Shown here piece by piece: positions 9,804 through 56,921 of a stretch of DNA of 64,000 bases. Position numbers and translations under genes: made by a program. The notes beneath the pieces were generated by a model, which saw nothing but the letters and a program-made list of their open reading frames with translations, was not told where the DNA came from and made no database searches. The stretch is from an uncultured Bacteroidia bacterium. Its GTDB lineage: Bacteria; CAIWAD01; BS150m-G50. The stretch's first letter is position 1. Every line of letters starts with the position of its first letter. The stretch covers positions 22,677-86,676 of the forward strand of contig CAZCRT010000008.1 of NCBI GenBank assembly GCA_964501185.1, read 5' to 3'.

Positions 9804-10382
9804 ATGGGCAAAGAGAAGAGTGTAGAGCTGGATATCTTTGAGCGTTCCGGCGCCCTGTTGAATGGTCACTTTGAATTGACCTCCGGCCGGCATTCTGAAA
9901 TGTACTTCCAGTGCGCTCTGGCTCTGCAGTACCCTGAGTTTGCTGCAGTACTGTGTCAGCGTATTGCCGAGCACTACTCCGGACAGAAGGTCAACAGTGT
10001 TATCGCACCGGCTATCGGTGGTATTCCGGTCGCCCAGGAAGTCGGGCGTCAGCTGGATGTACGTTCGCTTTTTGCTGAACGACTGGATGGAGCCATGATC
10101 CTGCGGCGTGGCTTCAAGATCGAAACAGGTGAACGGGTACTGGTAGTTGAAGATGTTGTTACAACCGGTGGTTCTGTTCAGGAAGTTGTCGATCTTGTGA
10201 AGCAGTGTGGTGCAGAGGTAGTTGGTGTGGGCACAATCGTGGATCGATCCGGTGGTGAAGCTGACTTTGGAGTACCGTTTTTTGCCACCTACAAGCAGGA
10301 CGTAGTTACCTGGGCACCTGAAGAGTGTCCGCTCTGCCGCAAACAGCAGCCTGTATACAAACCTGGAAGTCGTAGTTTGTAA
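9804..10382 (+). CDS. pyrE: Orotate phosphoribosyltransferase
   Basis: PRPP-binding motif VLVVEDVVTTGGS. Confidence 0.9.
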   Translation: MGKEKSVELDIFERSGALLNGHFELTSGRHSEMYFQCALALQYPEFAAVLCQRIAEHYSGQKVNSVIAPAIGGIPVAQEVGRQLDVRSLFAERLDGAMILRRGFKIETGERVLVVEDVVTTGGSVQEVVDLVKQCGAEVVGVGTIVDRSGGEADFGVPFFATYKQDVVTWAPEECPLCRKQQPVYKPGSRSL

Positions 10383-13497: not shown

Positions 13498-13501
13498 GTC
13501 A

Positions 13502-15814: not shown

Positions 15815-15902
15815 CAATATGAGATAGCTTGTAGGAGCATGACCAACGCTATGAATGGAATTGGCCAGGGGTAACCTGAGAACCGGAAAGAATCGAGGAT
15901 AA

Positions 15903-18900: not shown

Positions 18901-20450
18901 GCCTGGGGCCCTCTAACATGATCATGCCATTCTGGGACGATCTCAAGCCACAATACACACCTGCGGAAGATTCAGTTCAGGTTCCTGTTTATTACAAGGA
19001 TATGGGTGATGGCCGTTTTATTGTGGAATGGAGTCAGACCTATAACCGTTATCTGTGGGATTCAGAGCCCATGGAGGAAACCTTCCAGGTTATCCTGTAT
19101 GATCTGTTACAGTATCCCACAGCAACGGGTGACAGCCAGATAAAGTTTCAGTATCGCGTGATACACGATGAGGATGCCCGTGCTAATTATGCAACTGTCG
19201 GCATCACTGATCACGATCACTACCACGGGTTGGAGGTTACTTTTGCTCAGCGTTATGGCCCTGATGCTGCCATGCTGGCCGATGGCACCGCTATTCTCAT
19301 TACTACCGATCCACCACAGCGTGTCACCAATCCCCAGATATTCCTGGAAGGGGAACTGGAGGAGTGGTTCCATTCGCTTACACCTGAACTGCAGTGGGAT
19401 CCGGGGGTGCTGACCGGCAATCCGGATGTAACTTATACATTGCAGCTGGCACTGGACAATACATTCCCGGAGTTTGTGGCGAGCTATACAGATATCGATA
19501 CTTCTGCTTTCACGGTGCCTGATCCACTGGAGGAAGTAACACAATACTTCTGGCGGGTAATAGCTCATCTGGAGGACGAGGAGGATATCCTCTGTACACC
19601 TGATTTCCACAGCTTTCAGATCGATGCTACCGAACCTGTCGCCGAACTGGGGTTGATTGACAACCCGGTGTTTCCGCACTACCTCGATCTCGGTCTCATC
19701 AGTAGCGAGGAGTTAGAGGATGTACCCTGGGTGGTTGTAACCGATGCGGATACCGCACTGGTGGATTCCTCTCAGGCAGCACAGATGCCGCAGACCGAAA
19801 CAGGATTCCATTATACGCTCAACCTGGAACTGCTGGGACAATATCAACTCGCTGTACAGATGGTGGATGCACATGGATTGCCCGGTAGTACTGAGCGTGA
19901 TCTGGCGCTGGGTGGTGCCGGCTACACCTCCATTGAAATAGGTGATGATATCCGACTGGACTGGCTGTCGGGGACAGTAGTAACCGCTCTCGAAGGTGAG
20001 CAGGGTGTTGAACTGAGTGGTAATGGCAGCTATCTTCTTGAGTTTTCCGGTGAGGGGATTATCTGCCGGTTTGAAAATGGTAACTGGCGGGCGCTGGCTC
20101 CGGAAGGAGTGCAGCAGATTGTGATACATGAGGGAGGGCATTATGCTCTACGCTCTGCAGGTGATTTACTGCCTGATGCGGTAACCCTTTACGATAACTA
20201 CCCCAACCCCTTTAACGGTTCCACCCGTCTGGAGTTCACCCTGCCGGAAAGGGCAGCAATCCAGTTATCGGTGTACAACCTGCTGGGCAGGAGGGTTGAA
20301 GTATTGCAGGAGAGTACACTTAACGCCGGATTCCACCAGTATGACTGGCAACCCGGCAACTATGCTTCCGGTATGTACTGGGCGGTGTTGCGGGTTACGG
20401 GAGAAACCGAGAGTGTGACACGTATTCAGAAAATGCTCTATCTGAAGTGA
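15903..20450 (+). CDS. Large secreted multidomain protein, peptidase C25 (gingipain/PorU)-like, with T9SS C-terminal sorting domain
   Basis: 1515 aa with a signal peptide. C25-like N-terminal region (YIVLVGDQDG ... IVCNTGDFGH), FN3-like segments, and a C-terminal DNYPNPFNGSTRLEF...MLYLK tail. Confidence 0.5.
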   Translation: MMKTTITILLLTALQLTAVAATDTCITSITQEQDAVVIQYQLAGFNLEDQDGESLIEIDGMELSSYAGQPQVPFTTFWLEIPVDAEVSFELQEQDTRFYPDLVLAEYQDDEVKVDPAAGRTNLDSFVAIGNDGWMRDLRLVPLTLQPVRIEQEGVRVLQSAAIRISFSKTTEYSDISYSSEMDELYRSFVVNHGQFSNHRDETQFPRLLVVSSPFYTDYIGDLLQWKRRAGFNVDYVTFDQMPGGGNTITADNLDSWLIDYYAQHQPEYIVLVGDQDGTYACPTFLIPESEGEDYNVTDLQFSLKVGDDYLPDLLLGRLSVHDAPVQLMTIIDKVVQYESAPFAGVNEEQEDWLESGLVVGGNYAEGNTTPVTPVLTSRWVRERLIDNGFSQVDTVYFPPHISGEPMISNTINNGVGIVNYRGWADAEHWQRPSYSITNMNDNLNNHYMTPIMLSIVCNTGDFGHAQHEPCFAEAFLRLGTPGAPRGGIAVFAPSDLHTRSIYNNAINAGFYRGLFNEGISTMGGNVVRAKIDLFNGFPNEQELNGYVFFYFNVYNLLGDPSLRIRTAVPEPLLVTAPDTLAVGSSSYSVAVTDEQSSPMADMLVTLVAGDESEQLLARGRTDAAGNLTLYYERLVDAGTARLTVLGNNSYPHLVDIPIVVRPQFATLVASTWLEDGTSGSDGNGDADVNPGETVAWFPTLLNSGSETIPSIDLIASVDDGFIELQSTELTFGELLSGAQTTSATPLLLNVSHSVPHGWPLQLDLHISGEEFTQNSRDELTAVASRPYFVSDTLPGDANQVIDSDELVQLELTLANDGDLPTVDLSGTLSSLIPELTVETTIPQAIGIIPVDGEATVAFELHGGVDILPGLLLQLQLELTGGSDFQQLLDIDIINGQRETGDPTGPDGYGYWAYESRDYYYLNRPDYEWEEIDTRLLPESNGTRLELEDDQSTTIALPSDNFNFRFYGVDFDSITVCSNGWISMGRTWMSDFTNWMIPPGLGPSNMIMPFWDDLKPQYTPAEDSVQVPVYYKDMGDGRFIVEWSQTYNRYLWDSEPMEETFQVILYDLLQYPTATGDSQIKFQYRVIHDEDARANYATVGITDHDHYHGLEVTFAQRYGPDAAMLADGTAILITTDPPQRVTNPQIFLEGELEEWFHSLTPELQWDPGVLTGNPDVTYTLQLALDNTFPEFVASYTDIDTSAFTVPDPLEEVTQYFWRVIAHLEDEEDILCTPDFHSFQIDATEPVAELGLIDNPVFPHYLDLGLISSEELEDVPWVVVTDADTALVDSSQAAQMPQTETGFHYTLNLELLGQYQLAVQMVDAHGLPGSTERDLALGGAGYTSIEIGDDIRLDWLSGTVVTALEGEQGVELSGNGSYLLEFSGEGIICRFENGNWRALAPEGVQQIVIHEGGHYALRSAGDLLPDAVTLYDNYPNPFNGSTRLEFTLPERAAIQLSVYNLLGRRVEVLQESTLNAGFHQYDWQPGNYASGMYWAVLRVTGETESVTRIQKMLYLK

Positions 20451-39037: not shown

Positions 39038-40000
39038 CTAGCTGTTGCCGGTACGGTTCTCGCTGCCCCAGGCGTAATAATCAGACTCCGGGACATCTCT
39101 ACCCTGAATTATACTGCGGAACGCATTAGCACGTTCGAACTCCTCCCTGAAGAGATCAGTATAATGATCAATATCGACTTCACCCTGTGGGGTGCGATGC
39201 AGTTGCAGGAGGTTTGCCACCGGTTCTGCCACTCCCCAGATTTTCCCCTCCTGCGCATAGTGCGGATGCAGGCGCCGTGTAAGAAAATCAGCGAAATAGG
39301 TTATTGCAGTAAGCTGAGACAGTTCCTCTTCCAGCAGTGGCTGATGATGATAACGAATGGCATCGACTATCTGCTCCGGCAGATTCCAGCGCCGGGTCAG
39401 CAATCCTCCGATTTCTGCGTGGCACAATCCCAGAATTTCCTTCTCCGCTTCCCAGAGCAGGTAGTCCTTCTTCTCCTGTAATCGCTGGATCTCAGTGAAC
39501 TCCTGTGGCAGGTAGCGTACAATGACCAGCCGTCCGATATCGTGCAGCAATCCGGTCACAAATGCTTCACCGACTACACGATAGTTACCTTCCCTGCTTA
39601 TCATCCTGGCGGCAATTGCAGTACCGATAGAGTGTTCCCAGAATCCGGTCATATCAAATCCGGTGACTTCATGGCTGATATTGAATCGATCCACCAGCGA
39701 AGAGCTGACACCGAGATCTTTGACCGTGTTGAAGCCGAGTACAACTATTGCCAGGTTGATAGTGCCGATACGGCGTGGAAAGCCATAGAAAGCAGAGTTA
39801 GCCAGCTTCAGCATCCGGGCAGTCAGGCCGGGATCGGTTGCGATCAGACGGGAGAGTGTCGCCGCGTTTGTCTTCGGATTATCCACCAGTTCGACAATTT
39901 TGGAGACAACCATCGGTAGTGACGGTAGATCGAGAATACCATCGGCAATTGCTCTCACTCTGTCAGCTTTGGTTAACGGGGCAACTTGGGAAGGGGGCAT
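39038..40000 (-). CDS. HDOD-domain signalling protein
   Basis: LPSLPMVVSKIVELV...ATDPGLTARMLKLANSAFYG and a downstream HD-like HDIG...HH region. Confidence 0.8.
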   Translation of the reverse strand: MPPSQVAPLTKADRVRAIADGILDLPSLPMVVSKIVELVDNPKTNAATLSRLIATDPGLTARMLKLANSAFYGFPRRIGTINLAIVVLGFNTVKDLGVSSSLVDRFNISHEVTGFDMTGFWEHSIGTAIAARMISREGNYRVVGEAFVTGLLHDIGRLVIVRYLPQEFTEIQRLQEKKDYLLWEAEKEILGLCHAEIGGLLTRRWNLPEQIVDAIRYHHQPLLEEELSQLTAITYFADFLTRRLHPHYAQEGKIWGVAEPVANLLQLHRTPQGEVDIDHYTDLFREEFERANAFRSIIQGRDVPESDYYAWGSENRTGNS

Positions 40001-40002
40001 AT

Positions 40003-40365
40003 TCAGGCTTTCACATCAATTTCATGGTCTGGTCCGGGCCGGCTTTTCTCCGGTTCAGTTTCAGTTGTCTCTTCCCGGTCTGACTCTTTTTTATGTTGCT
40101 TACGAATGAACTTCTTCTGCTTCTCACTGTCGGCTTTGGCCCGGTAGTCTTCTTCCGCTTCCTGGGCTTTTCGCAACCGCGCTTTCGCTTTCTCTTCATC
40201 TGCGGCAGCATTAGCGACCTGGTGCTGCAGAGCCTGTTGACGCATTGCTTCCTGAAGACGCTCGATCAGTTTTGTCTTGGAGAAGTTATCCTGCAGGTCG
40301 ATAGAGCGTATCATTGATTCACTACTCTTTTCAGCAACGATATCAACAGCTCCCGCTGCTGACAC
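40003..40365 (-). CDS. Highly charged coiled-coil hypothetical protein downstream of fliA
   Basis: 120 aa, K/E-rich. Confidence 0.35.
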   Translation of the reverse strand: MSAAGAVDIVAEKSSESMIRSIDLQDNFSKTKLIERLQEAMRQQALQHQVANAAADEEKAKARLRKAQEAEEDYRAKADSEKQKKFIRKQHKKESDREETTETEPEKSRPGPDHEIDVKA

Positions 40366-40380
40366 GTCGGTGAATTTGTA

Positions 40381-41142
40381 TCACACTGAGATCAGGCTGC
40401 GAATTTTATTCTTCAGGTTAATGATAATCTTGGTATGAATCTGCGAAACACGGGATTCACTGATGTCCAGCACCTGGCCGATTTCCTTAAGTGTCAATTC
40501 CTCGTAATAGTAAAGGGCCATTACCAGTTTTTCCTGTTCCGGCAGCGAATTGATGAGCTTGACCATCAGGATCTTGATCTCCTTGCGTTCCATGATATCA
40601 AGCGGACTGTCATTGTGCTGATTCTCGACAACATCGTAAAGGCTTGTAGTCTGTCCTTCGTCAGAACCCATTGGATGATCGAAGGAGAGCAATGAGGTGG
40701 CGGACACCTCGTCCAGCAATTTATGATAATCAGAAAGAGTGAGTTCCAGCTTGACAGCGAGTTCCTCGTCAGTAGGTACGCGGTTAAGTTCCTCTTCCAG
40801 AGCAACCATCGCCTTACTCACCATTCGTTCCTTGGCTCTGATTGAACGGGGTACCCAGTCATAGTCACGCAGCCCATCAAGAATTGCACCACGAATACGT
40901 GGCACAGCGTAGGTTTCGAACTTGAAGCCGAGGGCAGGGTCAAAGTGATCAACCGAGTTTATCAGACCCATTGTTCCTGCGCCAACCAGATCGTCAAGGA
41001 CAACAGAGTTGGGTAATGATACTTTCATGCGGCTGGCTACAATTTTAACCAACGGCAGGTAATTGACCAGCAGCTGCTCCTTGAGTGCCGGATCCCGGTT
41101 GGTCTGAAACTCAGCCCAGACGGTTTTCATATCGTCAGACAT
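40381..41142 (-). CDS. fliA: Flagellar sigma-28 factor (FliA/WhiG family)
   Basis: Sigma-70 region 2 (DLVGAGTMGLINSVDHFDP..YAVPRIRGAI) and region 4 HTH (LTLKEIGQVLDISESRVSQIH). Sits downstream of flhF/flhG. Confidence 0.9.
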   Translation of the reverse strand: MSDDMKTVWAEFQTNRDPALKEQLLVNYLPLVKIVASRMKVSLPNSVVLDDLVGAGTMGLINSVDHFDPALGFKFETYAVPRIRGAILDGLRDYDWVPRSIRAKERMVSKAMVALEEELNRVPTDEELAVKLELTLSDYHKLLDEVSATSLLSFDHPMGSDEGQTTSLYDVVENQHNDSPLDIMERKEIKILMVKLINSLPEQEKLVMALYYYEELTLKEIGQVLDISESRVSQIHTKIIINLKNKIRSLISV

Positions 41143-41145
41143 GAT

Positions 41146-41457
41146 TTATTCCTTTTCTGCTTCAGAGGATTCAGATGATTCACTTGCCGCCTGCGGGCTA
41201 TGCGCCGCCTGTGGTGGCATGCCAACAGGTGTTGGTACTTTTCTCCTCTGTTCCAACTGCCAGTAATTATAAGTAACCAGCCCCAGTAAAACCAGAATTG
41301 AATAAGTAGCCCAGACTATCAGGGCACGACTCAGAATGGTCCAGAGGGAGAAATCAAACCAGGCGCCCAGAACTATGGTCACCAGCAGGATTATCTGCCC
41401 GAGCTGTTGCCATAACTGTTTGTTGTTGTCCTGATCACTCTTGTGTTGAACACTCAT
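41146..41457 (-). CDS. Small membrane protein (2 TM)
   Basis: 103 aa with two hydrophobic helices, between flhG-like and fliA. Confidence 0.4.
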   Translation of the reverse strand: MSVQHKSDQDNNKQLWQQLGQIILLVTIVLGAWFDFSLWTILSRALIVWATYSILVLLGLVTYNYWQLEQRRKVPTPVGMPPQAAHSPQAASESSESSEAEKE

Positions 41458-41464
41458 AGTATTC

Positions 41465-42169
41465 TCAATTATTTATATCCATGATATCAGATTTCCTCTG
41501 ACTGGAGTAGTGATATTGCCAGCTTATCAATGGTAGTCTGGAGGACCGCAGGAATACCGCTGCTTCCCTGAGTACTTCGACAAAAGCATCTGCATTCTCT
41601 GCCGGGATAGATTTCCCCTCAGCATCAGTATGCAGGCCTGACAACATTCCCAGGCAGGGTGGTGATACGCCAAACCACTGTCGAGTCAGATTGGTGAACA
41701 CGTCCAGTGGTGTTTCCTTGTTTTCAGGATCAGTTACATCTGCTTCTGTCCGGTTCATTAACAGGTAGAGTGGGCGTTCCAGATAATGATGCAGGTTTCT
41801 ACTGAAAAAACCAAAACTGCGCAGTAATTCTCTACTCTCATCAGGCAACACAAGTATGAAATCGTCTATCAGTGTATCACAACCATCAATAGAATCGAGC
41901 AGGATGAAATCATATCTCTGTGATAACCTGCGCCATTCCGCTTTTCGTTCCCGGTAAATCCTGTTGAATTCAGCGCTGTTCAACCTGCTGGGTCTGGCTG
42001 ATGTCATCACAGCTTCTTCCTGTGGTGAATCGCTGACCAGCAGTACTTTTTCACCAACTATCCTCAATGATACAGCCAGCACCTGAGCAATAAGAGATAT
42101 CCTGCTGTTACTGCTCTCAGCATGCAGAAGGATTACTCTGGGTCCACTGTTTTGAGTACTGTGATACAT
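41465..42169 (-). CDS. FlhG/MinD-family protein with degenerate Walker A (predicted non-ATPase)
   Basis: In the FlhG position. RVILLHAESSNSRISLIAQVLAVSLRIVGEKVLLV aligns to RVIAVTSGKGGVGKTT...NLA.ALA..GKRVLLL, with GKGGVGKT replaced by AESSNSRI. A Walker-B-like YDFILLDS is retained. Confidence 0.6.
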   Translation of the reverse strand: MYHSTQNSGPRVILLHAESSNSRISLIAQVLAVSLRIVGEKVLLVSDSPQEEAVMTSARPSRLNSAEFNRIYRERKAEWRRLSQRYDFILLDSIDGCDTLIDDFILVLPDESRELLRSFGFFSRNLHHYLERPLYLLMNRTEADVTDPENKETPLDVFTNLTRQWFGVSPPCLGMLSGLHTDAEGKSIPAENADAFVEVLREAAVFLRSSRLPLISWQYHYSSQRKSDIMDINN

Positions 42170-43284
42170 CAGTCGTCCTTTACCGGGAATCCATTTCCAT
42201 CAAGCAGCCAGGAAGCTATCAGAGATGGCCGCAAACTCAGCATATCCTCCGGGATTCGCTGGCCATTACCCAGGAAACTGAATACCGGCTTAATATCACA
42301 GGCGAGATTCAGGACATTGCCCAGGGTTCCAGTTTCATCAAGTTTGGTAAGAAGTATTCTATTGAAATTTATCTGACGATATTCTCTTACCATCCGGTTC
42401 AGGTCGGAGTACTTTGTGTTCAGTGGCAATACCAGATGGGTTTCCGAAGGCGCCGCCAGCTCCAGCATCTTCTCAACATCACGCAGCTGTTTCCCCGCAC
42501 GCCAGGAAGCCCCCGGCGTATCTATCAGTATAACCTCACAGTGCTGCAGTTCGCGCAGGGCGGGCTTGATTTCCTTTTCACGATACACCAGCCTGAGATC
42601 AGCTTTGACGATCTCTGCAAACACCTGCAGTTGTTGCGCAGCTGCCAGTTTCTTTGTGTCAAGACTGAGGATTCCCAGACGACGATTCCCAAAGAAGGAC
42701 CGATTTGCAGCCAGCTTTATGAGACTGGCGGTTTTACCTGCCCCGGTCGGGCCGATAAATGCCAGCTTCAGTGCCGTTCCATCAGTGTTGGAAGGTATGC
42801 CTGATGCGCGGAAACGCCGGGCAATCCAACGTGCGGCCCTTTCCTGCATGAGTTTGTGAGAGCGCAGTTCTCTGGGTGTAGCGCTCATCTGCAGGTCCTG
42901 CAAAAGCTCCTGTATCACGTTACTGTTTACTTCCATCCGGTGCAGATGGTTTGCCAGGTTGGAAAGTGTCGGCCAGGGCGATTTACCTTCCGGACGCCCC
43001 ATCTGTTGTTGCAGTTCCTGAATAGACCGGGCCAGCTGCTGCATTTCCCCCTGGAGTGCAGCCGGAGGAGCTATTCCGGCAGCCCCTGAAGAACCGGGAG
43101 GTGTAGAGGGGTGGATACTGTCAGCAGATTGTCCGACAACTACTTCATAACTCCAGCCATATTCCGGACCCGCAGGATGGTTGCGCCGGCCTGATTCAAC
43201 GATAACAACATCATCGCCGTTTTCCCGCTTTATCTTGCTCATGATATCACGGTAGTTAGTGCCGGTGTAGGATTTCGTTTCCAT
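42169..43284 (-). CDS. flhF: Flagellar biosynthesis GTPase FlhF
   Basis: SRP-type GTPase motifs GPTGAGKT and DTPG, basic N-domain, sits between flhA and flhG-like. Confidence 0.85.
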   Translation of the reverse strand: METKSYTGTNYRDIMSKIKRENGDDVVIVESGRRNHPAGPEYGWSYEVVVGQSADSIHPSTPPGSSGAAGIAPPAALQGEMQQLARSIQELQQQMGRPEGKSPWPTLSNLANHLHRMEVNSNVIQELLQDLQMSATPRELRSHKLMQERAARWIARRFRASGIPSNTDGTALKLAFIGPTGAGKTASLIKLAANRSFFGNRRLGILSLDTKKLAAAQQLQVFAEIVKADLRLVYREKEIKPALRELQHCEVILIDTPGASWRAGKQLRDVEKMLELAAPSETHLVLPLNTKYSDLNRMVREYRQINFNRILLTKLDETGTLGNVLNLACDIKPVFSFLGNGQRIPEDMLSLRPSLIASWLLDGNGFPVKDD

Positions 43285-43371
43285 TGTTGATTCCTCTATG
43301 CTGTATCACATGATCGTGTGGCTGTACTTCGGGATTTACGACCTTAAATTCATGTATAGTCTGTTCGACGA

Positions 43372-45504
43372 TCAGGCTTCACTGCCGGCTACGATCGCTT
43401 CCTTCTCTCTATCTTCCTGCCCTGCTTTCAGATTGCGGTGTGAAATCACTCCACAGGATTCTACTTCCACGCTGGGGATGAGTTCGCTGTACGAAACCAG
43501 ACTGAGATCAGGCAGCGAACTCTCGAGCAGTTTACGGAGGTATGGCCTGATGGTCGGTGCTGTCAGAAGCACGCCCCTGCGCCCCTGGGTTGACATCTCT
43601 TCAGAGAGATCCCGGATCTGGCGGATAAGAGCCGCAAAAACTTCCGGCGTAAGGCTCAAAGCGCGTCCCTGGGCAGTCTGCTCAAGTTCCCGGCTGAACA
43701 TTTCTTCCAGTTCCGGGTCGAGTGTCATACAGTAGATACGCCCATCTTCATTCTGGTATATCCTGGTGATAGTCTGGTTCAACGAGAAACGGGCATACTC
43801 GTTCAGAATCTCCACATCCTTGGTTGAAGGAGCGTAGTCTGCCAGTGTCTCCAGAATCGTCGTCAGATCCCGGATGGGGATACCCTCCTTCAACAGACGC
43901 TGGAGGACCTTATGTATCACACCCAGGCTGAGCAGATTGGGATAGAGCTCATCGACCAGTGCCGGGTTATCCTTTTTGATATTTTCAATCAGGTTCATCG
44001 CATCCTGGCGGCCGAGTATACGCCACGAGCTTTTTTGTATCACGTCAACCAGATGTGTCGCCAGTACTGCCGGTGCTTCGATTACGGCATAGCCCAGCAG
44101 TTCAGCCCTCTCCCTGATTTCCTCTCGTATCCAGGTTGCCGGCATGCCAAATGTCGGTTCCGTGGTCTTGAAACCGTCAATCTCCTCGTCAGCTTCCCCG
44201 GCGTTCAGCGCCAGATGATAGCCAACCTTGATTTCACCCTGTGCTACTTCAATACCACGGATTTTGATCGTGTACTCTTCCGGCTTCAGCTGAATATTAT
44301 CGCGAATGCGTATTGGCGGAATAATGATACCGAGATCCAGTGCCTGCTGTTTCCGGATAAGGGTAATACGGTTCAGCAGGTCACCATTCTGTTCCACATC
44401 GACCAGCGGAATGAGGCCGTAACCGATTTCAATTTCCATGGGATCGACATAGAGGAAGTCCTCGATATTTTCCTCTGCGGGCTCTTCCTGTGCTTCAGCT
44501 TCCGGTTCCTGTTGTTCACTCTTGCGTCCACTGCGCAGGGCCAGGGCGACGCTGCCGATTGCTATGGAAAGGATCATAAACGGAAGCGTGGGCAAACCGG
44601 GTACCAGCGCGAAAAACATGAGTACAAACGCTACAATGATGAGTGGCCGGATACGACTGAAGAGCTGAGCGGTTACATCATGCCCAAAGTTATTGCGGGC
44701 ACCGGCACGTGTTACAATTACACCGGCAGCCGTAGAGATGATCAGGGCAGGGATCTGGTTAACGAGACCGTCACCAACTGTAAGCAGAGTGTAGTTGGCA
44801 ATGGCTTCCGGGAAAGTCATACCCAGCTGAATCATACCGATAGCGAAACCACCAAGGATATTGATAGCGGTAATAATCAGACTGGCAATGGCATCACCCC
44901 GGACAAACTTGGAGGCACCATCCATTGCCCCATAGAAATCAGCCTCCTTGCTGATTTTCTCACGCCGCTGCCTGGCTTCCTGTTCGTCAATAACACCATT
45001 GTTGAGATCGGCGTCGATCGCCATCTGTTTACCCGGCATAGCGTCGAGTGTAAACCGGGCCGCTACCTCTGCAACACGCCCGGCACCCTTGGTAATGACG
45101 ATGAAGTTGATCAGTACCAGGATCAGGAAGACGATGAAACCGACGATGTAGTTGCCCTTGACCACGAAGCCACCGAAGGCGGAAATCACCTGCCCGGCGT
45201 AGCCATCACCCAGGATCAGCCGGGTAGAGGCGACATTAAGTGCCAATCGGAAAAGCGTGATCAGAAGCAGCAGACCGGGAAAGATGGAGAATTGGAGCGG
45301 CTCTGTATTGTAGATCGCAACCAGCAGGATGGTCAAGCCGATGGCAATATTGAGCGCCAGCAGCACATCCAGAAACGCTGCCGGCAGCGGAATGATCATC
45401 ATCACCAGGATACCGACAATACCCAGCGCTATCAGCACATCACTGCGTCGTGTCAGTGCCGAAAGGGTGTTATTACGCAGTGTGATACGATCGTCCATAC
45501 TCAT
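43372..45504 (-). CDS. flhA: Flagellar biosynthesis protein FlhA
   Basis: 710 aa; 8-TM N-domain with FlhA signatures (FPGLLL, TRLILGDG) and a large cytoplasmic domain. Confidence 0.95.
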   Translation of the reverse strand: MSMDDRITLRNNTLSALTRRSDVLIALGIVGILVMMIIPLPAAFLDVLLALNIAIGLTILLVAIYNTEPLQFSIFPGLLLLITLFRLALNVASTRLILGDGYAGQVISAFGGFVVKGNYIVGFIVFLILVLINFIVITKGAGRVAEVAARFTLDAMPGKQMAIDADLNNGVIDEQEARQRREKISKEADFYGAMDGASKFVRGDAIASLIITAINILGGFAIGMIQLGMTFPEAIANYTLLTVGDGLVNQIPALIISTAAGVIVTRAGARNNFGHDVTAQLFSRIRPLIIVAFVLMFFALVPGLPTLPFMILSIAIGSVALALRSGRKSEQQEPEAEAQEEPAEENIEDFLYVDPMEIEIGYGLIPLVDVEQNGDLLNRITLIRKQQALDLGIIIPPIRIRDNIQLKPEEYTIKIRGIEVAQGEIKVGYHLALNAGEADEEIDGFKTTEPTFGMPATWIREEIRERAELLGYAVIEAPAVLATHLVDVIQKSSWRILGRQDAMNLIENIKKDNPALVDELYPNLLSLGVIHKVLQRLLKEGIPIRDLTTILETLADYAPSTKDVEILNEYARFSLNQTITRIYQNEDGRIYCMTLDPELEEMFSRELEQTAQGRALSLTPEVFAALIRQIRDLSEEMSTQGRRGVLLTAPTIRPYLRKLLESSLPDLSLVSYSELIPSVEVESCGVISHRNLKAGQEDREKEAIVAGSEA

Positions 45505-46574
45505 GCTGCTTCACTTTTGTTCTGATAGACCAGTGCCAGCACTTCGGCAATGGCCTGATAGAAATCAACCGGTACTTCCACACCTACATCCACAACGTGA
45601 TACATTGCGCGGGTGAGGGGCGGATTTTCTATTACCGGAATATCGTTGTGCCCGGCAATTTCCCGGATACGCTCTGCGACCTTGCGGACCCCCTTGGCTA
45701 CGACACGGGGAGCGCGCATATTTTCCTGTTCATATTTGAGTGCGATAGCGTAATGTGTCGGGTTGGTGATCACAACATCCGCGTCCGGGACGTCATTCAG
45801 CATCCGCCGGAACGCCATCTCAAACTGCAGTGAACGGACATGTGATTTCAACAGCGGGTCACCCTCGGTCTGCTTACGCTCATCCTTGACTTCCTGTTTA
45901 GTCATCTTCAGTTTGCGCGAGTGTTCCCATTTCTGAAACCACCAGTCGAATGCTGCGATCGCGCTCAGGAAAACCGCAGTCCAAATGATCAGGTTGCGTG
46001 TACTTTCCGCAACTGCCATCAGCATGCCGGCGGTAGTCGAGTCACCCAGCCGGGAAAAATCTCCCAACTCGTTCTTTACTACCAGCCACGCGACAAATCC
46101 CACCACAGTGATCTTGACGAAGTTCTTCACCAGTTCGTTGAGAGAGCGGGTGGAGAAAATGTTCTTCAATCCCTTTACCGGGTTCATTTTATTGAAATCA
46201 GGTTTGATCGATTCGGCTGAAGCGAGGAAGCCAACCTGTGACAGATTGGCTGCCAGGCCGATAACCAGTACCAGCAGCATGAAGGGCAGCACCGCTCTGG
46301 CAGTAATACCCACACTGAAGCTGCCAATCTCCTGAACCTGATCGATTTCAACAGGCCAGCTGGATGCATGACTGTAGATGTAGCGGAATCCACCGGTGAT
46401 GGTCGCCATTATCTGACCACCCAGTATCATCAACGCCAGCAGGCCACCCAGAATCACGGCAGCGGAGTTAATCTCCATGCTCTTGGCGACGTTACCCTTC
46501 TTGCGTGCGTCATCGCGCCGCTTCTGGGTTGCCGGTTCTGTTTTGTCCTGGAAGGATGTCTGCTCATCAGCCAT
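45501..46574 (-). CDS. flhB: Flagellar biosynthesis protein FlhB
   Basis: 4-TM N-domain and NPTH autocleavage motif (VVITNPTHYAIAL). Confidence 0.95.
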   Translation of the reverse strand: MADEQTSFQDKTEPATQKRRDDARKKGNVAKSMEINSAAVILGGLLALMILGGQIMATITGGFRYIYSHASSWPVEIDQVQEIGSFSVGITARAVLPFMLLVLVIGLAANLSQVGFLASAESIKPDFNKMNPVKGLKNIFSTRSLNELVKNFVKITVVGFVAWLVVKNELGDFSRLGDSTTAGMLMAVAESTRNLIIWTAVFLSAIAAFDWWFQKWEHSRKLKMTKQEVKDERKQTEGDPLLKSHVRSLQFEMAFRRMLNDVPDADVVITNPTHYAIALKYEQENMRAPRVVAKGVRKVAERIREIAGHNDIPVIENPPLTRAMYHVVDVGVEVPVDFYQAIAEVLALVYQNKSEAA

Positions 46575-46826: not shown

Positions 46827-47879
46827 TTAGACTATCCGCAGCCCTTTACCATCGTAACCGGTAATCTCACCGATCAGGCAGGCGTTCTTGACACCATGTT
46901 CCAACAGGCTTTGCAGCAGTCGGTCACTCTCATTGCCAGCGACGGCAATCAGCAGGCCACCGGAAGTCTGTGGATCGTAGAGCAGTTGCTGATCTTTCCA
47001 GCTGATTTCCCGGTTGAATTCCAGTTCGGAAGCTACCTTTTCGTAGTTGGGCTTGTTGGCACCGGTACCGACTTTGTCGTAATACAACTCCTGCGCCTGT
47101 GTGAAAAATGGCAGCGACTCTAAGTTGATCCGCATGGTAACACCACTGGTGGCAGCCATCTTGCCGGCATGTCCGGCCAGGCCGAAACCGGTCACATCAG
47201 TACAGGCGTGTACCGTGAAATCTGTTAACACTTCTGCAGCGACGCGGTTGAGTGTAATCATCGACTCAATCACAGGTTCCAGATTCTCCGGCAGGGTTTT
47301 ACCGGCATTGTTACCGTTGATGATGACACCGGTACCGAGTGGTTTGGTGAGGATAAGCCTGTCTCCCGGTTGCGCTGTTGAGTTGCGCAGGATCCGGTCA
47401 GGATGTACCAGGCCATTGACCGACAGGCCGTATTTCGGCTCCGGATCATCGGTAGTATGTCCACCGATCAGTATTGCCCCCGCTTCACTGATCTTGCTCA
47501 AACCGCCGGCCAGCACCTGCTGAAAAACAGTCACATCCTGGGTACCGGGCAGCCCCAGCAGATTGAGAGCAGTAATCGGCCGCGCACCCATGGCATAAAT
47601 GTCACTCAATGCATTAGCAGCTGCTATCTGGCCGAATGTGTAGGGATCGTCAACCGGAGGGGTGATCCAGTCACCGGTAACTACCAGCGCCTGTTCATCC
47701 GATAGCCTGTAAACACCGGAATCATCACCGGTATCGATACCTACCAGGACATCTGAATCCTGTTGAGTATGCACATCAGCCAGTATTTTATCCAACCCGA
47801 CCGGGTCAATCTTGGCCGCTCAACCGCACTTGTGTGCCAGTGATGCCAGTCCCGGTTGATCTGTGAGGTGTAGTTTCAT
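46827..47879 (-). CDS. selD: Selenide, water dikinase (selenophosphate synthetase), Sec-containing, in-frame UGA at 47820-47822
   Basis: The track's ORF (TTG start at 47795) lacks the SelD N-terminus. Extending upstream in frame gives MKLHLTDQPGLASLAHKCG-U-AAKIDPVGLDKIL, which aligns to E. coli SHGAGC(17)GCK(20)ISPKVLETIL with UGA at the Cys17 position. The rest is a full-length SelD (AIR synthase-like). Confidence 0.85.
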
Positions 47880-48053
47880 CTTTTTTCCATTTAGTTCAGG
47901 AATATAATAATATTGAGCTGCGGGGCGCAAATGCCAGTTTATTTTCCTTTTATAAGCTCGATGATTGCAGTTTCCTGCCCTGACCGGTATTTTATGATGA
48001 GTATATAAACCCGTTCATGAACCTGGATATACCTGGTAAAAGGAGAAACTCCC

Positions 48054-51000
48054 ATGTCTAAATGGATCATTGTACCAACAGCTATGCTGGTAGTGCTGAT
48101 ACAACTGACAGCAGCTCCTGCTGTTGATGCAGCAGAGACCCGTACCCTGATGAAAATTGACAATGCTACCCCCCTGCAGATGCAGTTACTGGCGCAGGGC
48201 CATTACCACGTCGACAGGGTTGTTGATAACGAGGTTGAACTCTGGTTGAATGAATCAGAACTGGGTAAGCTGCAGGAGCAGGGGATACGACCATACAGTA
48301 TACCTGACCAGGCTTATGAGATGTTTCTGCATTTACAGGCAACAGCCCGTGACGATGGCGGCTGGCGCGATTACCATAACTACAGCCAGGTTACCGGTTA
48401 TCTGCAGAACCTGAATGATACCTATCCGGACATCACAGAATTGTTCAGTATCGGCCAGACGGTGGATGGGCGGGAGCTCTGGGTTCTCCGGATTACTGAT
48501 AATCCGGATGTTGAAGAAGATGAACCGGAGTTCAAATATATCTCCACCATGCATGGCAACGAACCGGTAGGCACGGAAATGCTGCTCGAGTTGTGCGATC
48601 TGCTGTTGGAAGGATACGGCCTTATTCCCCGGTATACCAACATCATAGACAATATCGACCTTTCCATTCTGCCGATGATGAACCCTGATGGTAATGATGC
48701 CGGAACCCGCAGCAATGCTAACGGTGTCGATCTAAACCGCAATTTTCCGGATCAATACGATGACCCTTTCAACACCCCTGACGGGCGTGAGCCGGAGACC
48801 GCTGCAGTGATGAACTGGACAGCAGCAGAGAACTTCATCCTCTCAGCTAATTTCCATACCGGCGCCCTTGTAGTCAATTATCCCTTTGACAGCAATCCGC
48901 AGGGAACCAATACTTTCTCCCCCTCACCGGATGAGGACCTTTTCGTCGTCATGTCAGAAGCTTACTCCATACATAATTCACCGATGTGGAACGGAAGTTT
49001 TTATCACGGGATAACCAACGGTGCTGACTGGTACTGTATTTACGGTGGCATGCAGGATTGGAACTATGTCTGGGAGGGGGGCATGGAGGTCACAGTCGAG
49101 CTCAGTAACACATCCTGGCCGGATGGTTCCGTCCTGCCACAGCTCTGGAATGACAACCGGGAATCGATGCTGTCTTACCTCGAGTATTCCCTGGAAGGTA
49201 TCCGGGGGGTGATTATCGACGCCGACACAGGATTGCCAATAGCAGCCACAGTATGCCTTGAAGGCAATCCACATGAAACCTACAGCGATCCGGATGTGGG
49301 CGATTATCACCGTATCTGTCTCCCGGGGACATACACCCTGGTGGTCAGCAAGCAGTTCTATGAAAGTGCCACAATTCCGGGTGTCTTTGTTATGGACGGC
49401 ATGCCTACCGAAGTGGATGTAGCTCTGACCCCGCTTGCACCGACACCTGACCTGCAGCTGATTGCCACACTGATAGACGATGGGGGTGACGGTGTGCTGG
49501 ATCCAGGTGAAACTGCCTGGTTGACGCTGGAACTTGCCAATGAAGGCAATCAACCGGCCTCCAGCACACTCGGTATCATAACCGGTAGCAATCCGGAATT
49601 GACAATTAATGATGGTGACGGCAGTTGGGGGACGATCAACCCGGAAACAACTGCCTGGAACAGTGGTGATCCCTTCCAAATGACTTTAGCTGCTGGTTGC
49701 CCGGTGGGAGAAGTACTGCCGCTGGAATTGAACCTGACTGCAGGTGACTACAGCACTGTTATCAGTTTTTCGTTGACGGCTGGCCTGCAGATCGAGGATT
49801 TCGAGAGTGGTGACTTTGCAGGGCTCCCCTGGACAATGGATGGCAGTGCCGGCTGGATAATCAGCGGGGCCCCTTACGAAGGAGCATGGTGCGCACAGTC
49901 GGGCAACATCGGCAACAACCAGACTTCCGAATTGCACCTGACTGTCGACGTGGTAGCGCCCGGTGATATTGCCTTCCAGTATAAAGTCTCCTCAGAAGAC
50001 ACTTACGATTATCTCCGTTTCCTGATTGATGGAACGCCGCAGGCTGCCTGGGCCGGAGAAGAGGGCTGGAGTGAGTACAGTTGCGCTGTAGCTGCCGGTG
50101 AGCATCAGTTCAGCTGGATTTTTGACAAGGATAATTCCGTCAGCCATGGCAGCGACTGTGGCTGGATTGACTATATTGTATTCCCGCCGCTGGCCGCGCT
50201 CCCCTTCCCGGAAATCGATGTGGATCCCACTGCCTTCAGCATCAACCTGGAGCCGGGTGAGTCTACGCTGGAATTGCTGACTATCGACAACAGTGGCGAC
50301 GCTGAGCTGGATTATACAGTGCAGGTTTCCATTGATGGTGAACCAACCGCAGTTCCACACATGGAGTTGCGCAAAGGAGAGGATGATCCCCGAACAGGTC
50401 AGTTCGGTCGTGACCAGGGGAGGCCGGATGGTTTTGGCCATTACTGGATAGATAGTGATCAGCCGGAGGGACCGGCTTACAACTGGATAGAAATCAGCAG
50501 CGTTGGAACTTCTCCCGGTGACCAGGATGATGGTAACTATGGCCCGATCCCGCTCGGGTTCACAGTCGATTTCTACGCCTGGGCTTATGACGCGATCCGT
50601 ATATGTACCAACGGCTGGCTCTCTTTCGCCTCAACCGTCACTGAATACGACAACCAGGGGATCCCGGACAGCGCTGAGCCGAACGGCCTGATAGCGCCCT
50701 TCTGGGACGACCTGAATCCTTCCAGCAGCGGTACTGTTTACTACTATGCTGATGCAGCCAACCAGCGCTTCATAGTTGAGTGGGACGGTGTAGTGCTATA
50801 TGGAACCGAAGATGCGCAGACCTTCCAGGTGATTATCAACGCCGACGGAACCATACTCTACCAGTACCAGACGGTAACTGATGGCACAAGTTGTACGGTT
50901 GGAATTGAGAACCAGGATGGCAGTGATGGGTTGGAGATAGTCTTTAATGCCCCTTATCTGCATGACGGCCTGGCAATACTGATTGATCACAGCACACCCT

Positions 51001-51389
51001 GGCTTACTGTCAATCCAATGGCAGGCAGCGTTGGCCCTTACGACTTCACACTGCTGGATGTGATGTTTAACGCGACAGAAGTAACGGAAGGGACATATAC
51101 CGGGAGTATTACGATTTTCTCCAATGATCAGGATGAAAGCATTATCGTGGTTCCGGTCACCCTTGAGGTTGGTACCATTGAGCCCGATCCGATAACTGAC
51201 CTGCAGATCGTGTATGCGGGTGACAGCATATTCCTTTCCTGGAGTGCGGTTCCCGGAGTGACATTGTATCACATTTATGAGTGTGATACACCATACGGAA
51301 CCTTTATGAATGTGGGCAGTACGGCTGAGACTGAAGTAGTGCTTCCGGTATCAGCCGCTAAATTCTACCGTGTAACATCGGATTTCTAG
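48054..51389 (+). CDS. Secreted M14 zinc carboxypeptidase with large C-terminal accessory domains
   Basis: Signal peptide and HxxE motif (MHGNE). Followed by Ig/CARDB-like and jelly-roll-like modules and an FN3-like C-terminus. No PNPFN T9SS tail. Confidence 0.8.
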   Translation: MSKWIIVPTAMLVVLIQLTAAPAVDAAETRTLMKIDNATPLQMQLLAQGHYHVDRVVDNEVELWLNESELGKLQEQGIRPYSIPDQAYEMFLHLQATARDDGGWRDYHNYSQVTGYLQNLNDTYPDITELFSIGQTVDGRELWVLRITDNPDVEEDEPEFKYISTMHGNEPVGTEMLLELCDLLLEGYGLIPRYTNIIDNIDLSILPMMNPDGNDAGTRSNANGVDLNRNFPDQYDDPFNTPDGREPETAAVMNWTAAENFILSANFHTGALVVNYPFDSNPQGTNTFSPSPDEDLFVVMSEAYSIHNSPMWNGSFYHGITNGADWYCIYGGMQDWNYVWEGGMEVTVELSNTSWPDGSVLPQLWNDNRESMLSYLEYSLEGIRGVIIDADTGLPIAATVCLEGNPHETYSDPDVGDYHRICLPGTYTLVVSKQFYESATIPGVFVMDGMPTEVDVALTPLAPTPDLQLIATLIDDGGDGVLDPGETAWLTLELANEGNQPASSTLGIITGSNPELTINDGDGSWGTINPETTAWNSGDPFQMTLAAGCPVGEVLPLELNLTAGDYSTVISFSLTAGLQIEDFESGDFAGLPWTMDGSAGWIISGAPYEGAWCAQSGNIGNNQTSELHLTVDVVAPGDIAFQYKVSSEDTYDYLRFLIDGTPQAAWAGEEGWSEYSCAVAAGEHQFSWIFDKDNSVSHGSDCGWIDYIVFPPLAALPFPEIDVDPTAFSINLEPGESTLELLTIDNSGDAELDYTVQVSIDGEPTAVPHMELRKGEDDPRTGQFGRDQGRPDGFGHYWIDSDQPEGPAYNWIEISSVGTSPGDQDDGNYGPIPLGFTVDFYAWAYDAIRICTNGWLSFASTVTEYDNQGIPDSAEPNGLIAPFWDDLNPSSSGTVYYYADAANQRFIVEWDGVVLYGTEDAQTFQVIINADGTILYQYQTVTDGTSCTVGIENQDGSDGLEIVFNAPYLHDGLAILIDHSTPWLTVNPMAGSVGPYDFTLLDVMFNATEVTEGTYTGSITIFSNDQDESIIVVPVTLEVGTIEPDPITDLQIVYAGDSIFLSWSAVPGVTLYHIYECDTPYGTFMNVGSTAETEVVLPVSAAKFYRVTSDF

Positions 51390-53878: not shown

Positions 53879-54127
53879 ATGCCCAGTTACAGCTACAAGT
53901 GTCTCGATTGCGGACATGAGTACACCATGTTCCAGAAGATGACTGACGAACCGCATAGCACCGGCTGCCCCATCTGCGAGGGCCGCGTGCATCGTCTGAT
54001 CGGTGCAGGTGCCGGTCTTGTGTTCAAGGGAACCGGTTTTTACATTACCGATTATAAGCGCAAAGAGAGTGCAGGAGCTGCTGTTGAATCCTCCGGTGGC
54101 TGCCAGGGTTGCAGCGCTAACAAATAA
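53879..54127 (+). CDS. FmdB-family zinc-ribbon protein
   Basis: MPSYSYKCLDCGHEY...CPICEG; 82 aa. Confidence 0.7.
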   Translation: MPSYSYKCLDCGHEYTMFQKMTDEPHSTGCPICEGRVHRLIGAGAGLVFKGTGFYITDYKRKESAGAAVESSGGCQGCSANK

Positions 54128-54181: not shown

Positions 54182-54832
54182 ATGCCGATTATCAGTGACA
54201 AAGATCAACAGGTTGTGCGTGACATGTTCAATGTCATGGATAAACCGGTGAAGCTGGTTTTCTATGAGAAGACAGAAGATTGTCAGTACTGCGAGGAGAT
54301 AGACCAGCTGCTGAGTGAGCTGGTACAACTCTCTGATAAACTGACACTGGAAAAGAAAAACATCGACAGCGATCAGGAGCTGGCCGTTAAGCTGGCAGTT
54401 GATAAAGCACCCGCGATTGTGCTGCTGGGTGAAGATGATCATGATTATGGCATCCGTTTCTACGGTATTCCGGCCGGGTATGAATTCAGCGCTCTGCTGG
54501 AAGATATCACCATGGTCTCTCTGGGTGAGTCGGGGCTGCAGCATACAACCCGGACCGCATTGGAACAGCTGAAGGAACCGGTGAACCTGAAGGTGTTTGT
54601 CACACCCACCTGACCCCACTGCACACAGGCAGTTCGCCTGGCACATCAGATGGCCTATGAGCGAGAAAACATCACCGGTGAAATGGTGGAAGCACAGGAA
54701 TTTATGGCTCTATCACAGCGCTTCAAAGTGCGTGGTGTGCCACGTACGGTTGTGAACGACAGCAAATTCATCGATGGCGGCCTTCCGGAGCAGATGTTCC
54801 TGGAAAGGGTAGTGGAGCTGGTGAAGTTATAG
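54182..54832 (+). CDS. Glutaredoxin-like protein disulfide oxidoreductase (two Trx folds), predicted selenoprotein with in-frame UGA at 54611-54613
   Basis: Track ORFs 54182-54613 and 54650-54832 are in the same frame, separated only by TGA. The read-through gives ...LKVFVTPT-U-PHCTQAVRLAHQMAYE...VPRTVVND. The first Trx unit carries CQYC and the second carries U-P-H-C in place of CPxC. Confidence 0.7.
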
Positions 54833-55022: not shown

Positions 55023-55232
55023 ATGATTACAGCCGATGTTTACATTGAGGACCTGGTAGAAGATTATCCTGCTTCGGTAGCTTTTCTGCTGGAACGGAAG
55101 ATCGTCTGTATCAAGTGTGGTGAACCGATCTGGGGTACACTGCGGGAAACGCTTGAACGGGGTGAGGTTGAGGATATCGGACAGTTTGTTAAAGACCTCA
55201 ATGAATTCCTGGCCAACTCAATAAACTCCTAG
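55023..55232 (+). CDS. DUF1858 redox-disulfide small protein
   Basis: VCIKCGEP motif; 69 aa. Confidence 0.6.
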   Translation: MITADVYIEDLVEDYPASVAFLLERKIVCIKCGEPIWGTLRETLERGEVEDIGQFVKDLNEFLANSINS

Positions 55233-55350: not shown

Positions 55351-55704
55351 GGGGACGTTCAGGATTCGACGGGCTGGAAGTGACTTGGATCTGCATGTCG
55401 AGGTGTTCCGTCTGCTCGTAAAAACAGCGGTAAACAATTTAGTTGCCAACGACAACTATGCACTCGCTGCTTAATATAAACTAAGCAGCTGTCCCTCCAG
55501 GGGGTGCCGTTACTCCTGGTCCGGACATCATTTCAACGGCTGGCGCAACCGATTGCCTCCAGCGGAAGCGTGAGATTAAGGAGGATAACTCCCCAGAGCC
55601 TGTCTGACGGCTTCGAAGGGGGCGAAAACTCGTAGTCAGACTAAGCATGTAGATGATCCCTGGTGCTCCTTTCCGGACGCGGGTTCAATTCCCGCCGTCT
55701 CCAC
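55351..55704 (+). ncRNA. ssrA: tmRNA (SsrA), standard one-piece form
   Basis: 5' GGGGACGTTCAGGATTCGACGGG resembles E. coli GGGGCTGATTCTGGATTCGACGGG. 5' GGGGACG pairs with 3' CGTCTCC. T-arm GCGGG-TTCAATT-CCCGC precedes the 3' acceptor strand and discriminator A. Tag reading frame GCC AAC GAC AAC TAT GCA CTC GCT GCT TAA at 55445-55474 encodes ANDNYALAA, with the resume codon 94 nt from the 5' end. Confidence 0.9.
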
Positions 55705-55707
55705 TTT

Positions 55708-55757
55708 TAAAAAACCCGTTCTGCTTGATACTCAAGGCAGGGCGGGTTTTTTTATTG
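55708..55757 (+). terminator. Rho-independent terminator after ssrA
   Basis: AAAAACCCG...CGGGTTTTTTT with an internal CTTGA/TCAAG hairpin and a T-run. Confidence 0.7.
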
Positions 55758-55805
55758 AGTATCCATCTTGTGAATTTCGAACCTCAAATCGGTCAACAGA
55801 AAACC

Positions 55806-56921
55806 ATGCTTAAATGCCCTGACTGCAAAGTAGCTCTCATCCAACACAGGGGCCGCCCTGGCGCTTACTGGAGTTGTCCCGAATGTGGTGGTCGGTCAGT
55901 GACTTTTCCCCTGTTGCGCAAAACTATACCTCGAGTGTTAGCGAACAGTCTCTGGCAAAGGGCAACTACAGCTGTCAAGTCTGGCGACCGACGCTGCCCA
56001 TCCTGTCATAGGATAATGGTTGAAGTACCGGTTGGTGCAGGCCCACAGTCAGACCAGCTTGACATCTGCACAAGTTGTCAGTTTGTGTGGTTTGACCACT
56101 CTGAGTTTGAGGCGTTACCTGTGGAATCTGGTTCGAAACGAACTGAAGTGGAGATTTCACCAGAAGGATGGCAATCTCTGGGGGGACTGGAACTCGATGT
56201 AATTCAAAGGGAGCAGGATGAAGCTGAATCGAATTGGATCGGACCTGATGGATTATGGAAATGGTGCTCATCCTATTTTGGTTTACCGGTTGAGTATGAT
56301 CCCGGATTTCTGCAGCGGTGGCCTTTGCTGACCTGGTTCATCATCTTCGTAGTTTCCACTGCCAGCCTGGCTGCTTTTCAACAATTTGAGCTTACGACGC
56401 AAGACTTCGGATTCATTCCTGCCGCCTGGTCCCGTTATGGCGGACTGTCTTTTCTAACAGCATTCTTTATTCATGGCGGTGTAACACATCTGCTGGTTAA
56501 CATGTATTTCTTGCTGGTCTTTGGTGATAACGTTGAAGATTGGCTGGGGCGCTGGAAATTTGTTCTGCTGTTAATCCTGGCTGCAGCGGGGGGAGCACTT
56601 GCGCATCTTCTGGGAAACCCATCCTCTACTATTCCACTGGTTGGTGCGAGCGGGGGAATATCAGGGGTAATTGCATTCTATGTGTTCAGGTTCCCCCATG
56701 CACGACTGGGTCAGTTTGTTCACATATTCATCATCATCAGATGGTTGCGCATGCCGGCATATATGTGGTTCTGCTACTGGATACTGTTGCAAATCACCGG
56801 CGTCTGGTTCCAACTTAAAGGATTCAGCCATGTGTCAGTATTATCACACGTGGGAGGGGCTGCGGTGGGTGTGCTCTTCTGGTGGGTGACCAGGAGACAG
56901 GATATCTCAACAAAACACTGA
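55806..56921 (+). CDS. Rhomboid family protease with N-terminal zinc-ribbon domain
   Basis: CPDCK...CPECGG zinc ribbon; rhomboid core GASGGISGV and HVGGAAVG. Start is moved downstream of the tmRNA. Confidence 0.8.
   Translation: MLKCPDCKVALIQHRGRPGAYWSCPECGGRSVTFPLLRKTIPRVLANSLWQRATTAVKSGDRRCPSCHRIMVEVPVGAGPQSDQLDICTSCQFVWFDHSEFEALPVESGSKRTEVEISPEGWQSLGGLELDVIQREQDEAESNWIGPDGLWKWCSSYFGLPVEYDPGFLQRWPLLTWFIIFVVSTASLAAFQQFELTTQDFGFIPAAWSRYGGLSFLTAFFIHGGVTHLLVNMYFLLVFGDNVEDWLGRWKFVLLLILAAAGGALAHLLGNPSSTIPLVGASGGISGVIAFYVFRFPHARLGQFVHIFIIIRWLRMPAYMWFCYWILLQITGVWFQLKGFSHVSVLSHVGGAAVGVLFWWVTRRQDISTKH

Follow-up and report, generated by a model that had tools for sequence, protein, structure and literature searches.

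The gene on the minus strand at positions 46827-47879 of the window, by which we mean the whole 64-kb stretch of DNA that was analysed, very probably encodes a Sec-type SelD. On this reading translation begins at an ATG at 47879, the UGA at codon 20 is recoded as selenocysteine (Sec) by means of a SECIS, and the product is a 350-residue enzyme carrying Sec20 and Lys23. The claim is drawn from the reading frame, from alignment to characterised enzymes and relatives, and from the predicted fold of the mRNA after the UGA.

Reading frame and proposed start codon of selD

46827..47879, minus strand: full-length selD coding sequence, 350 codons including Sec20 followed by a TAA stop, from translation and from profile, domain and PDB matches
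47877..47879, minus strand: proposed true ATG start of selD; similarity to the 81% identical relative L163 starts exactly here
47886..47888, minus strand: putative, weak Shine-Dalgarno-like GGA of selD, 7-9 nt before the ATG
47820..47822, minus strand: in-frame UGA, codon 20 of selD, predicted to be read as Sec; corresponds to Cys17 of E. coli SelD by alignment
47793..47795, minus strand: TTG taken as the start in the mechanical and public ORF calls, in the proposed frame the internal Leu29; the product from it lacks TIGR00476 positions 1-20

Translation of the selD frame from the upstream start (ATG AAA CTA CAC...) gives MKLHLTDQPGLASLAHKCG-TGA-AAKIDPVGL..., and no further stop is encountered until the TAA at 46829-46827. 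An earlier note on this DNA had claimed that the called selD frame starts at a TTG and is missing the SelD N-terminus, and that extending it 84 nt upstream in frame takes in a UGA, and both observations hold. The mechanical ORF list begins selD at the TTG at 47795, 84 nt 3' of the ATG, with a product of 322 aa, and in the public annotation of the contig an exact-sequence look-up found the identical 322-aa product; the frame opened by the ATG at 47879 is confirmed, as is the TGA at 47822-47820 within it.

The extension has a start codon and, in front of it, a modest Shine-Dalgarno-like site: the start context is TGGAAAAAAG-ATG, and its GGA resembles the sites of several other genes in the window. 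Upstream of the TTG at 47795 there is no correctly spaced Shine-Dalgarno-like equivalent. A promoter and terminator scan returned matches at chance level only.

The intergenic region 5' of selD is shared with a divergent gene for an M14 peptidase, and is for the most part diverged from that of L163. Two short blocks within it, AAAnAAACnGGCATT and ATATTnTT, are nevertheless kept between the window (47900-47950, minus strand) and L163 (approximately 9846-9916); they lie 20-60 nt 5' of the ATG, and may be promoter or regulatory elements.

Family identity and the catalytic N-terminus

Profile matches identify the gene as selD, of the selenide, water dikinase family, in agreement with the assignment first made from the letters alone. 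Scored with its Sec replaced by Cys, as the HMM alphabets require, the 350-residue protein reached 370.5 bits against TIGR00476 (NCBIfam selD; cutoff 125) and 321.1 bits against NF002098 (cutoff 299), and it contains an AIRS domain (PF00586) at residues 51-158 and an AIRS_C domain (PF02769) at residues 170-346. The truncated 322-aa product scored 346.1 bits against TIGR00476 and 300.2 bits against NF002098 (cutoff 299), its match beginning at profile position 21. The 28-residue extension is accordingly worth 24.4 bits with the first profile and 20.9 bits with the second, and restores profile positions 2-20.

The best matches in the PDB were SelD from Aquifex aeolicus (2yye/2zod, E = 5e-66) and from E. 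coli (3u0o, E = 1e-62); each aligns from query residue 11 onwards, a point within the proposed extension. In the phmmer alignment to 3u0o, query residues 11-33 pair with chain residues 8-30 without a gap, placing U20 on Cys17 and K23 on Lys20; the proposal that the UGA occupies the Cys17 position, and that the equivalent of Lys20 is preserved, is borne out by this alignment. Further along the chain D53, D70, N89, D93 and D228 align with E. coli D51, D68, N87, D91 and D227, which we take to be the ATP- and metal-binding residues of the E. coli enzyme.

The N-terminal loop with the catalytic residues is required in SelD (PMC7595633), and truncated SelD without the N-terminal catalytic Cys and Lys does not complement selD-deficient E. 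coli (PMC7595633). Given that such truncated enzymes fail in complementation, the truncated annotation cannot represent the functional product.

The UGA codon among relatives

The loci of 80 relatives in species-representative genomes and of 80 in metagenomes, with identities to the window's SelD of 43-50%, were fetched and read through stops. At the exact codon of the UGA, 57/80 of the best genome relatives have TGA and 19/80 have TGC or TGT, the remaining 4 not being parsed by the motif; over all fetched loci there were 105 distinct UGA-type and 27 distinct Cys-type selD 5' regions. Before and after this codon the peptide is kept (...RLT.....G-[U/C]-A-[AS]-K-[IL]-.-P...), and the UGA thus sits in a column occupied by either Sec or Cys, the usual hallmark of a selenoprotein family.

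Scans of genome and metagenome contigs found no selD relative above approximately 50% identity. The protein database holds closer ones, at 90%, 86% (partial) and 81% identity, and all of these have been called in the truncated form. The 81% relative, whose cluster carries the NCBI name Candidatus Delongbacteria, is represented by three independent assemblies (L163-L165) and reads MKIHLTDQPGLASLAHKCG-TGA-AAKLDPVGL; the TGA is kept in these three and in the 90% relative (L162). The contigs of the close relatives are syntenic with the window, with genes for the M14 peptidase, selD, flhB and flhA.

Comparison with the 81% relative bears directly on whether the sequence before the UGA is translated. 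Of codons 1-19, 13 are identical, 5 differ synonymously and 1 differs non-synonymously; the first 57 nt of selD are 88% identical, whereas the 84 nt 5' of the ATG are 44% identical. Because codons 1-19 are mostly identical or synonymous while the sequence upstream has fallen to 44% identity, the extension reads as coding DNA, kept by purifying selection from ATG 47879 onwards, and its conservation is far above the random level at which the proposal of an extended N-terminus would have failed. The 330 codons after the UGA are intact as well, and differ from the relative by 114 synonymous and 59 non-synonymous codon changes. The 90% relative cannot be used to compare start codons since there is an assembly artefact at its selD 5' end: a run of N (scaffold gap) at approximately 4813-4912 covers selD codons 1-17, after a short duplicated AAAATACTGGCGG.

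The candidate SECIS

47777..47818, minus strand: candidate bacterial SECIS, consisting of a lower stem CGGCCA/UGGCUG, an internal region and an upper stem-loop
47794..47807, minus strand: predicted upper stem-loop of the SECIS, GACCC[GGUC]GGGUU, at nt 16-29 counted from the U of the UGA

The mRNA just after the UGA can fold into a hairpin that we regard as a candidate bacterial SECIS, supported by its agreement with published geometry but weak in its predicted stability. The earlier note had pointed to CCC-GGUC-GGG flanked by pairing of CCAA with UUGG; the core does occur, at nt 18-27 if the U of the UGA is taken as nt 1, and it fits the geometry of bacterial SECIS elements, but the flanking CCAA/UUGG pairs were rejected, as the minimum-energy fold instead has GACCC paired with GGGUU, and a lower stem in which CGGCCA (47818-47813) pairs with UGGCUG (47782-47777). 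The apical loop, GGUC, occupies 47799-47802, or nt 21-24 from the U of the UGA.

In the published bSECIS model (PMC13188914 Fig. 2) the apical loop has 3-9 nt and the upper stem 4-16 bp, and the model further puts a G at loop position 1 or 2, with G or U as the usual next nucleotide (PMC13188914), and specifies 16-37 nt from UGA to loop and an MFE of <= -7.5 kcal/mol (PMC13188914). The selD hairpin has a 4-nt loop (GGUC) on a stem of 5 bp, or of 7 bp if two U-G pairs are included, its loop begins G21-G22-U23, and 17 nt (GCGGCCAAGAUUGACCC) separate the loop from the UGA, close to the minimum; all of these values lie within the model. With respect to energy the outcome depends on the span used, as the limit of -7.5 kcal/mol is reached only by the two stems together. 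So folded, the element has an MFE of -14.5 kcal/mol (z = -1.05), and the z-scores obtained from folding, -0.56 and -1.05, do not set it apart from shuffled sequences; the upper hairpin alone has -6.0 to -6.3 kcal/mol, where the median for other UGA-type selD genes is -10.8 kcal/mol. There is no bulged U like U17 of E. coli.

The 15-nt hairpin core is invariant in L162 and L163, although the flanking codons vary synonymously; given that 43% of amino-acid-identical codons elsewhere in selD vary synonymously, five invariant hairpin codons would occur by chance with p ~0.06. A consensus fold of three relatives contains one compensatory pair in the lower stem (C-G/U-G/U-A) and an invariant upper stem, which does not amount to statistically meaningful covariation. 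A permissive Rfam scan of 47600-48000 gave chance-level miRNA and UTR matches only, with no SECIS among them, and we did not count this as counter-evidence.

In place of the folding test, which is not significant for so short an element, we compared UGA-type with Cys-type genes and scanned the window for background. Hairpins were counted as one class if the loop began at nt 19-24, if G stood at loop position 1 or 2, and if the energy was <= -6 kcal/mol. Hairpins of this class follow the codon in 80/105 UGA-type and in 2/27 Cys-type selD regions (Fisher p = 4.5e-11; GC 0.58 and 0.61, respectively), a result to be read with the energy threshold being the window hairpin's own value and the compared sequences being phylogenetically non-independent. 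By this contrast the hairpin class goes with the UGA rather than with the peptide encoded there. As background, a hairpin of the selD geometry and strength follows 2.6% of arbitrary positions in the window.

UGA usage in the window and a second selenoprotein gene

Elsewhere in the window UGA serves as a stop. Among 43 long ORFs it is the commonest terminator (TGA 19, TAG 13, TAA 11), and their approximately 18,500 codons contain no in-frame TGA; since TGA is thus a common stop and absent within long frames, genome-wide reassignment of UGA is excluded. A mechanical scan for UGA-interrupted frames returned 36 candidates, and only two of these, the sites in selD and in a PDO gene, lie in the frames of genuine genes. 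Each occupies the place of a redox-active Cys in a known selenoprotein family.

54182..54832, plus strand: PDO_seleno_TRX protein disulfide oxidoreductase (TIGR02187, 279.6 bits, cutoff 185)
54611-54613, plus strand: in-frame UGA of the PDO gene, ...VFVTPT-U-PHC..., in the motif T-U-P-H-C
54626-54640, plus strand: hairpin CAGGC[AGUUC]GCCUG of the PDO gene, a 5-bp stem at nt 16-20 and a loop from nt 21, with G22-U23

The suggestion in the earlier note of a second selenoprotein at 54.6 kb has proved sound. The closest known family of the PDO gene is PDO_seleno_TRX, from which it differs in nothing notable, and its UxxC motif is that of the second thioredoxin-fold domain; the 81% relative has TGA and hairpin alike, and the public gene calls break the gene into products of 143 aa and 60 aa. 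Hairpins of the quality found in the PDO gene follow 0.85% of window positions. The selD and PDO hairpins are alike in that the loop runs from nt 21 and has G22-U23, the likeness one would expect of these predicted folds if a single SelB served both genes.

On either side of the PDO gene lies one for a small Cys-motif protein: an FmdB-family zinc ribbon (53879-54127, plus strand; TIGR02605, 54 bits) and a 69-aa CxxC protein (55023-55232, plus strand) with a weak resemblance, at 25 bits and below the cutoff, to TIGR03980, the hybrid-cluster-protein-associated redox disulfide domain. The three genes may form a small redox cluster.

Within the 64-kb window ARAGORN and Rfam detected no tRNA-Sec, and Pfam and NCBIfam searches of the 25 large ORFs found neither selA nor selB; selA, selB and the tRNA-Sec gene, selC, presumably lie elsewhere in the genome. 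The sole Rfam match in the window at the gathering threshold was a tmRNA gene (55351-55706, plus strand, its end also given as 55704; 187.9 bits) with the tag peptide ANDNYALAA. It overlaps the first ~50 nt of a listed rhomboid-family ORF (55653-56921, plus strand), and the true start of that ORF is therefore probably further downstream.

Alternative explanations

The annotation could be right as called, with a truncated SelD made from the TTG at 47795 or from another internal start and the UGA merely closing a 19-codon upstream ORF. The mechanical and public calls do agree on 322 aa, and that product still exceeds the family cutoffs (346 bits for TIGR00476, and 300.2 against 299 for NF002098). 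However, it would be without the catalytic Sec or Cys and the Lys whose loss abolishes selD complementation (PMC7595633), the 19 codons preceding the UGA change in the manner of coding sequence and prolong the SelD alignment, the TTG has no correctly spaced Shine-Dalgarno, and 57/80 relatives share the same architecture, all of which makes the called form very unlikely. It would likewise be surprising in the extreme if selD were a pseudogene or the product of an assembly error, in which a Cys codon had mutated or been misread to TGA. One base separates TGA from TGC or TGT, and the window does come from a metagenome assembly, but assemblies made independently from separate samples repeat the TGA, with identities of 100%, 90% and 81%, the 330 downstream codons are unbroken and differ synonymously in 114 cases and non-synonymously in 59, and the site is followed by a hairpin of the UGA-specific class, with a second gene in the window behaving alike.

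It is also conceivable that the selD UGA is decoded without the Sec machinery. The codon might have been reassigned across the genome (code 4 or 25), or near-cognate read-through might insert Trp or Cys; the lack of Sec machinery genes in the window together with the weakness of the selD hairpin would accord with this. Against it stand the use of TGA as the commonest stop of long ORFs (19/43) and the ~18,500 codons free of in-frame TGA, as well as the finding that the sole two TGAs in real frames sit on the redox-active Cys of known selenoprotein families, and we give this route next to no credence. Recoding of the selD UGA to Sec is the reading we adopt in what follows.

Proposed mechanism

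We propose that translation of selD would begin at ATG 47879 and that the UGA at codon 20 would be recoded to Sec by a SelB-GTP-Sec-tRNA(Sec) complex recruited by an mRNA hairpin, the bacterial SECIS. The GGUC apical loop 17 nt after the UGA would mark the SelB-recruiting hairpin of selD. The resulting 350-residue SelD would carry Sec20 and Lys23 in a flexible, glycine-rich N-terminal loop, where they would form the catalytic pair that in characterised SelD enzymes handles selenide and the gamma-phosphate of ATP to yield selenophosphate. Both Sec insertion and binding of SelB to the selD hairpin are part of what we infer from the sequence features described above.

Genomic surroundings and implications

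Directly 3' of selD and on the same strand (39038-46574, minus) are genes for FlhB, FlhA, an SRP54-type FlhF, a FliA-like sigma-70-family factor and an HDOD protein; these form a cluster for flagellar export and regulation, whose gene order recurs in the 81% relative and which has no obvious functional link to selenium. In the regions 13445-20450 (plus strand) and 48054-51389 (plus strand) the window further contains two large M14 carboxypeptidase paralogues together with a 1515-aa protein that has weak similarity to PorU, the type IX secretion sortase, and a T9SS C-terminal sorting domain. The M14 paralogues and the 1515-aa protein suggest T9SS-type secretion in the lineage.

The public calls for this contig and its relatives strip the catalytic residues from selD and split the PDO gene, and owing to these errors metabolic reconstructions of these MAGs would misjudge their use of selenium. 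A Sec-containing SelD implies a full Sec-decoding machinery, and an organism that needs selenium to make its own selenium donor. The host lineage, going by the NCBI name of the 81% relative, is probably Candidatus Delongbacteria, and the Sec trait would thereby be extended to a poorly sampled lineage; the searchable literature contained no mention of selenocysteine in Candidatus Delongbacteria. The value of the result lies in re-annotation and in a marker of the Sec trait, and it leaves the understanding of selenoprotein synthesis unchanged.

A more ambitious joint reading can be put together from these observations, and we offer it tentatively, as one that is rather doubtful when taken whole. 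It would hold that this is the first evidence of selenocysteine use in a lineage of the candidate phylum Delongbacteria; that its selenoproteome, on the 64 kb, includes SelD and the PDO without formate dehydrogenase; that SelB of this organism recognises a minimal SECIS, with a 5-bp upper stem, no bulged U and a loop at nt 21 in both genes; and that a C-G-U selenenylsulfide replaces the Cys17/Cys19 pair of E. coli.

Comparison with known systems

Among bacterial selenoprotein families SelD ranks second in spread, behind FdhA (PMC1794560, PMC13188914), and Sec-type SelD is known in Geobacter, Desulfovibrio, Clostridium, Moorella and Treponema (PMC1794560). The window's protein resembles these and the Sec-containing Aquifex enzyme in family and domains, in the Sec column and in the motif G-U-A-A-K-[IV]-x-P ('kcgCaakidp' in the one, 'ssgCaakvgp' in the other), and its gene resembles theirs in having a SECIS-class hairpin inside the coding region just 3' of the UGA. 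The Aquifex structures (2yye/2zod) were, we assume, solved as a Sec-to-Cys variant. It differs from known Sec-type SelDs, among other things, in that the nearest genome relatives are only ~44-50% identical, and in that the hairpin is weaker than is typical (-6.0 against a median of -10.8 kcal/mol).

With E. coli SelD (3u0o) the protein shares its family, a catalytic loop and ATP-site residues that align, and an N-terminus that does so without a gap. The E. coli gene, however, is of the Cys type, with no UGA and no need of a SECIS, and where the E. coli protein has Cys17, and Cys19 at +2, the window's protein has Sec20 and Ala. It has in turn a Cys two residues before the Sec (C-G-U-A-A-K; codons 18-19, 47823-47828, minus strand), a feature that among 33 distinct Sec contexts was found in this selD clade and one Verrucomicrobiales MAG only, most of the others having no nearby Cys; this Cys may serve as the selenenylsulfide partner of the Sec.

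The SECIS of E. coli fdhF, which has been defined experimentally, has a loop with G23-U24 and a bulged U17 (PMC8659212). The selD hairpin is like it in being a coding-region stem-loop right after the UGA, with G22-U23 in place of G23-U24, and unlike it in having no bulged U17, a shorter upper stem and a loop 1 nt nearer the UGA. Set beside these systems, the selD of the window is a further case of a very common bacterial selenoprotein, and one that would not surprise a specialist.
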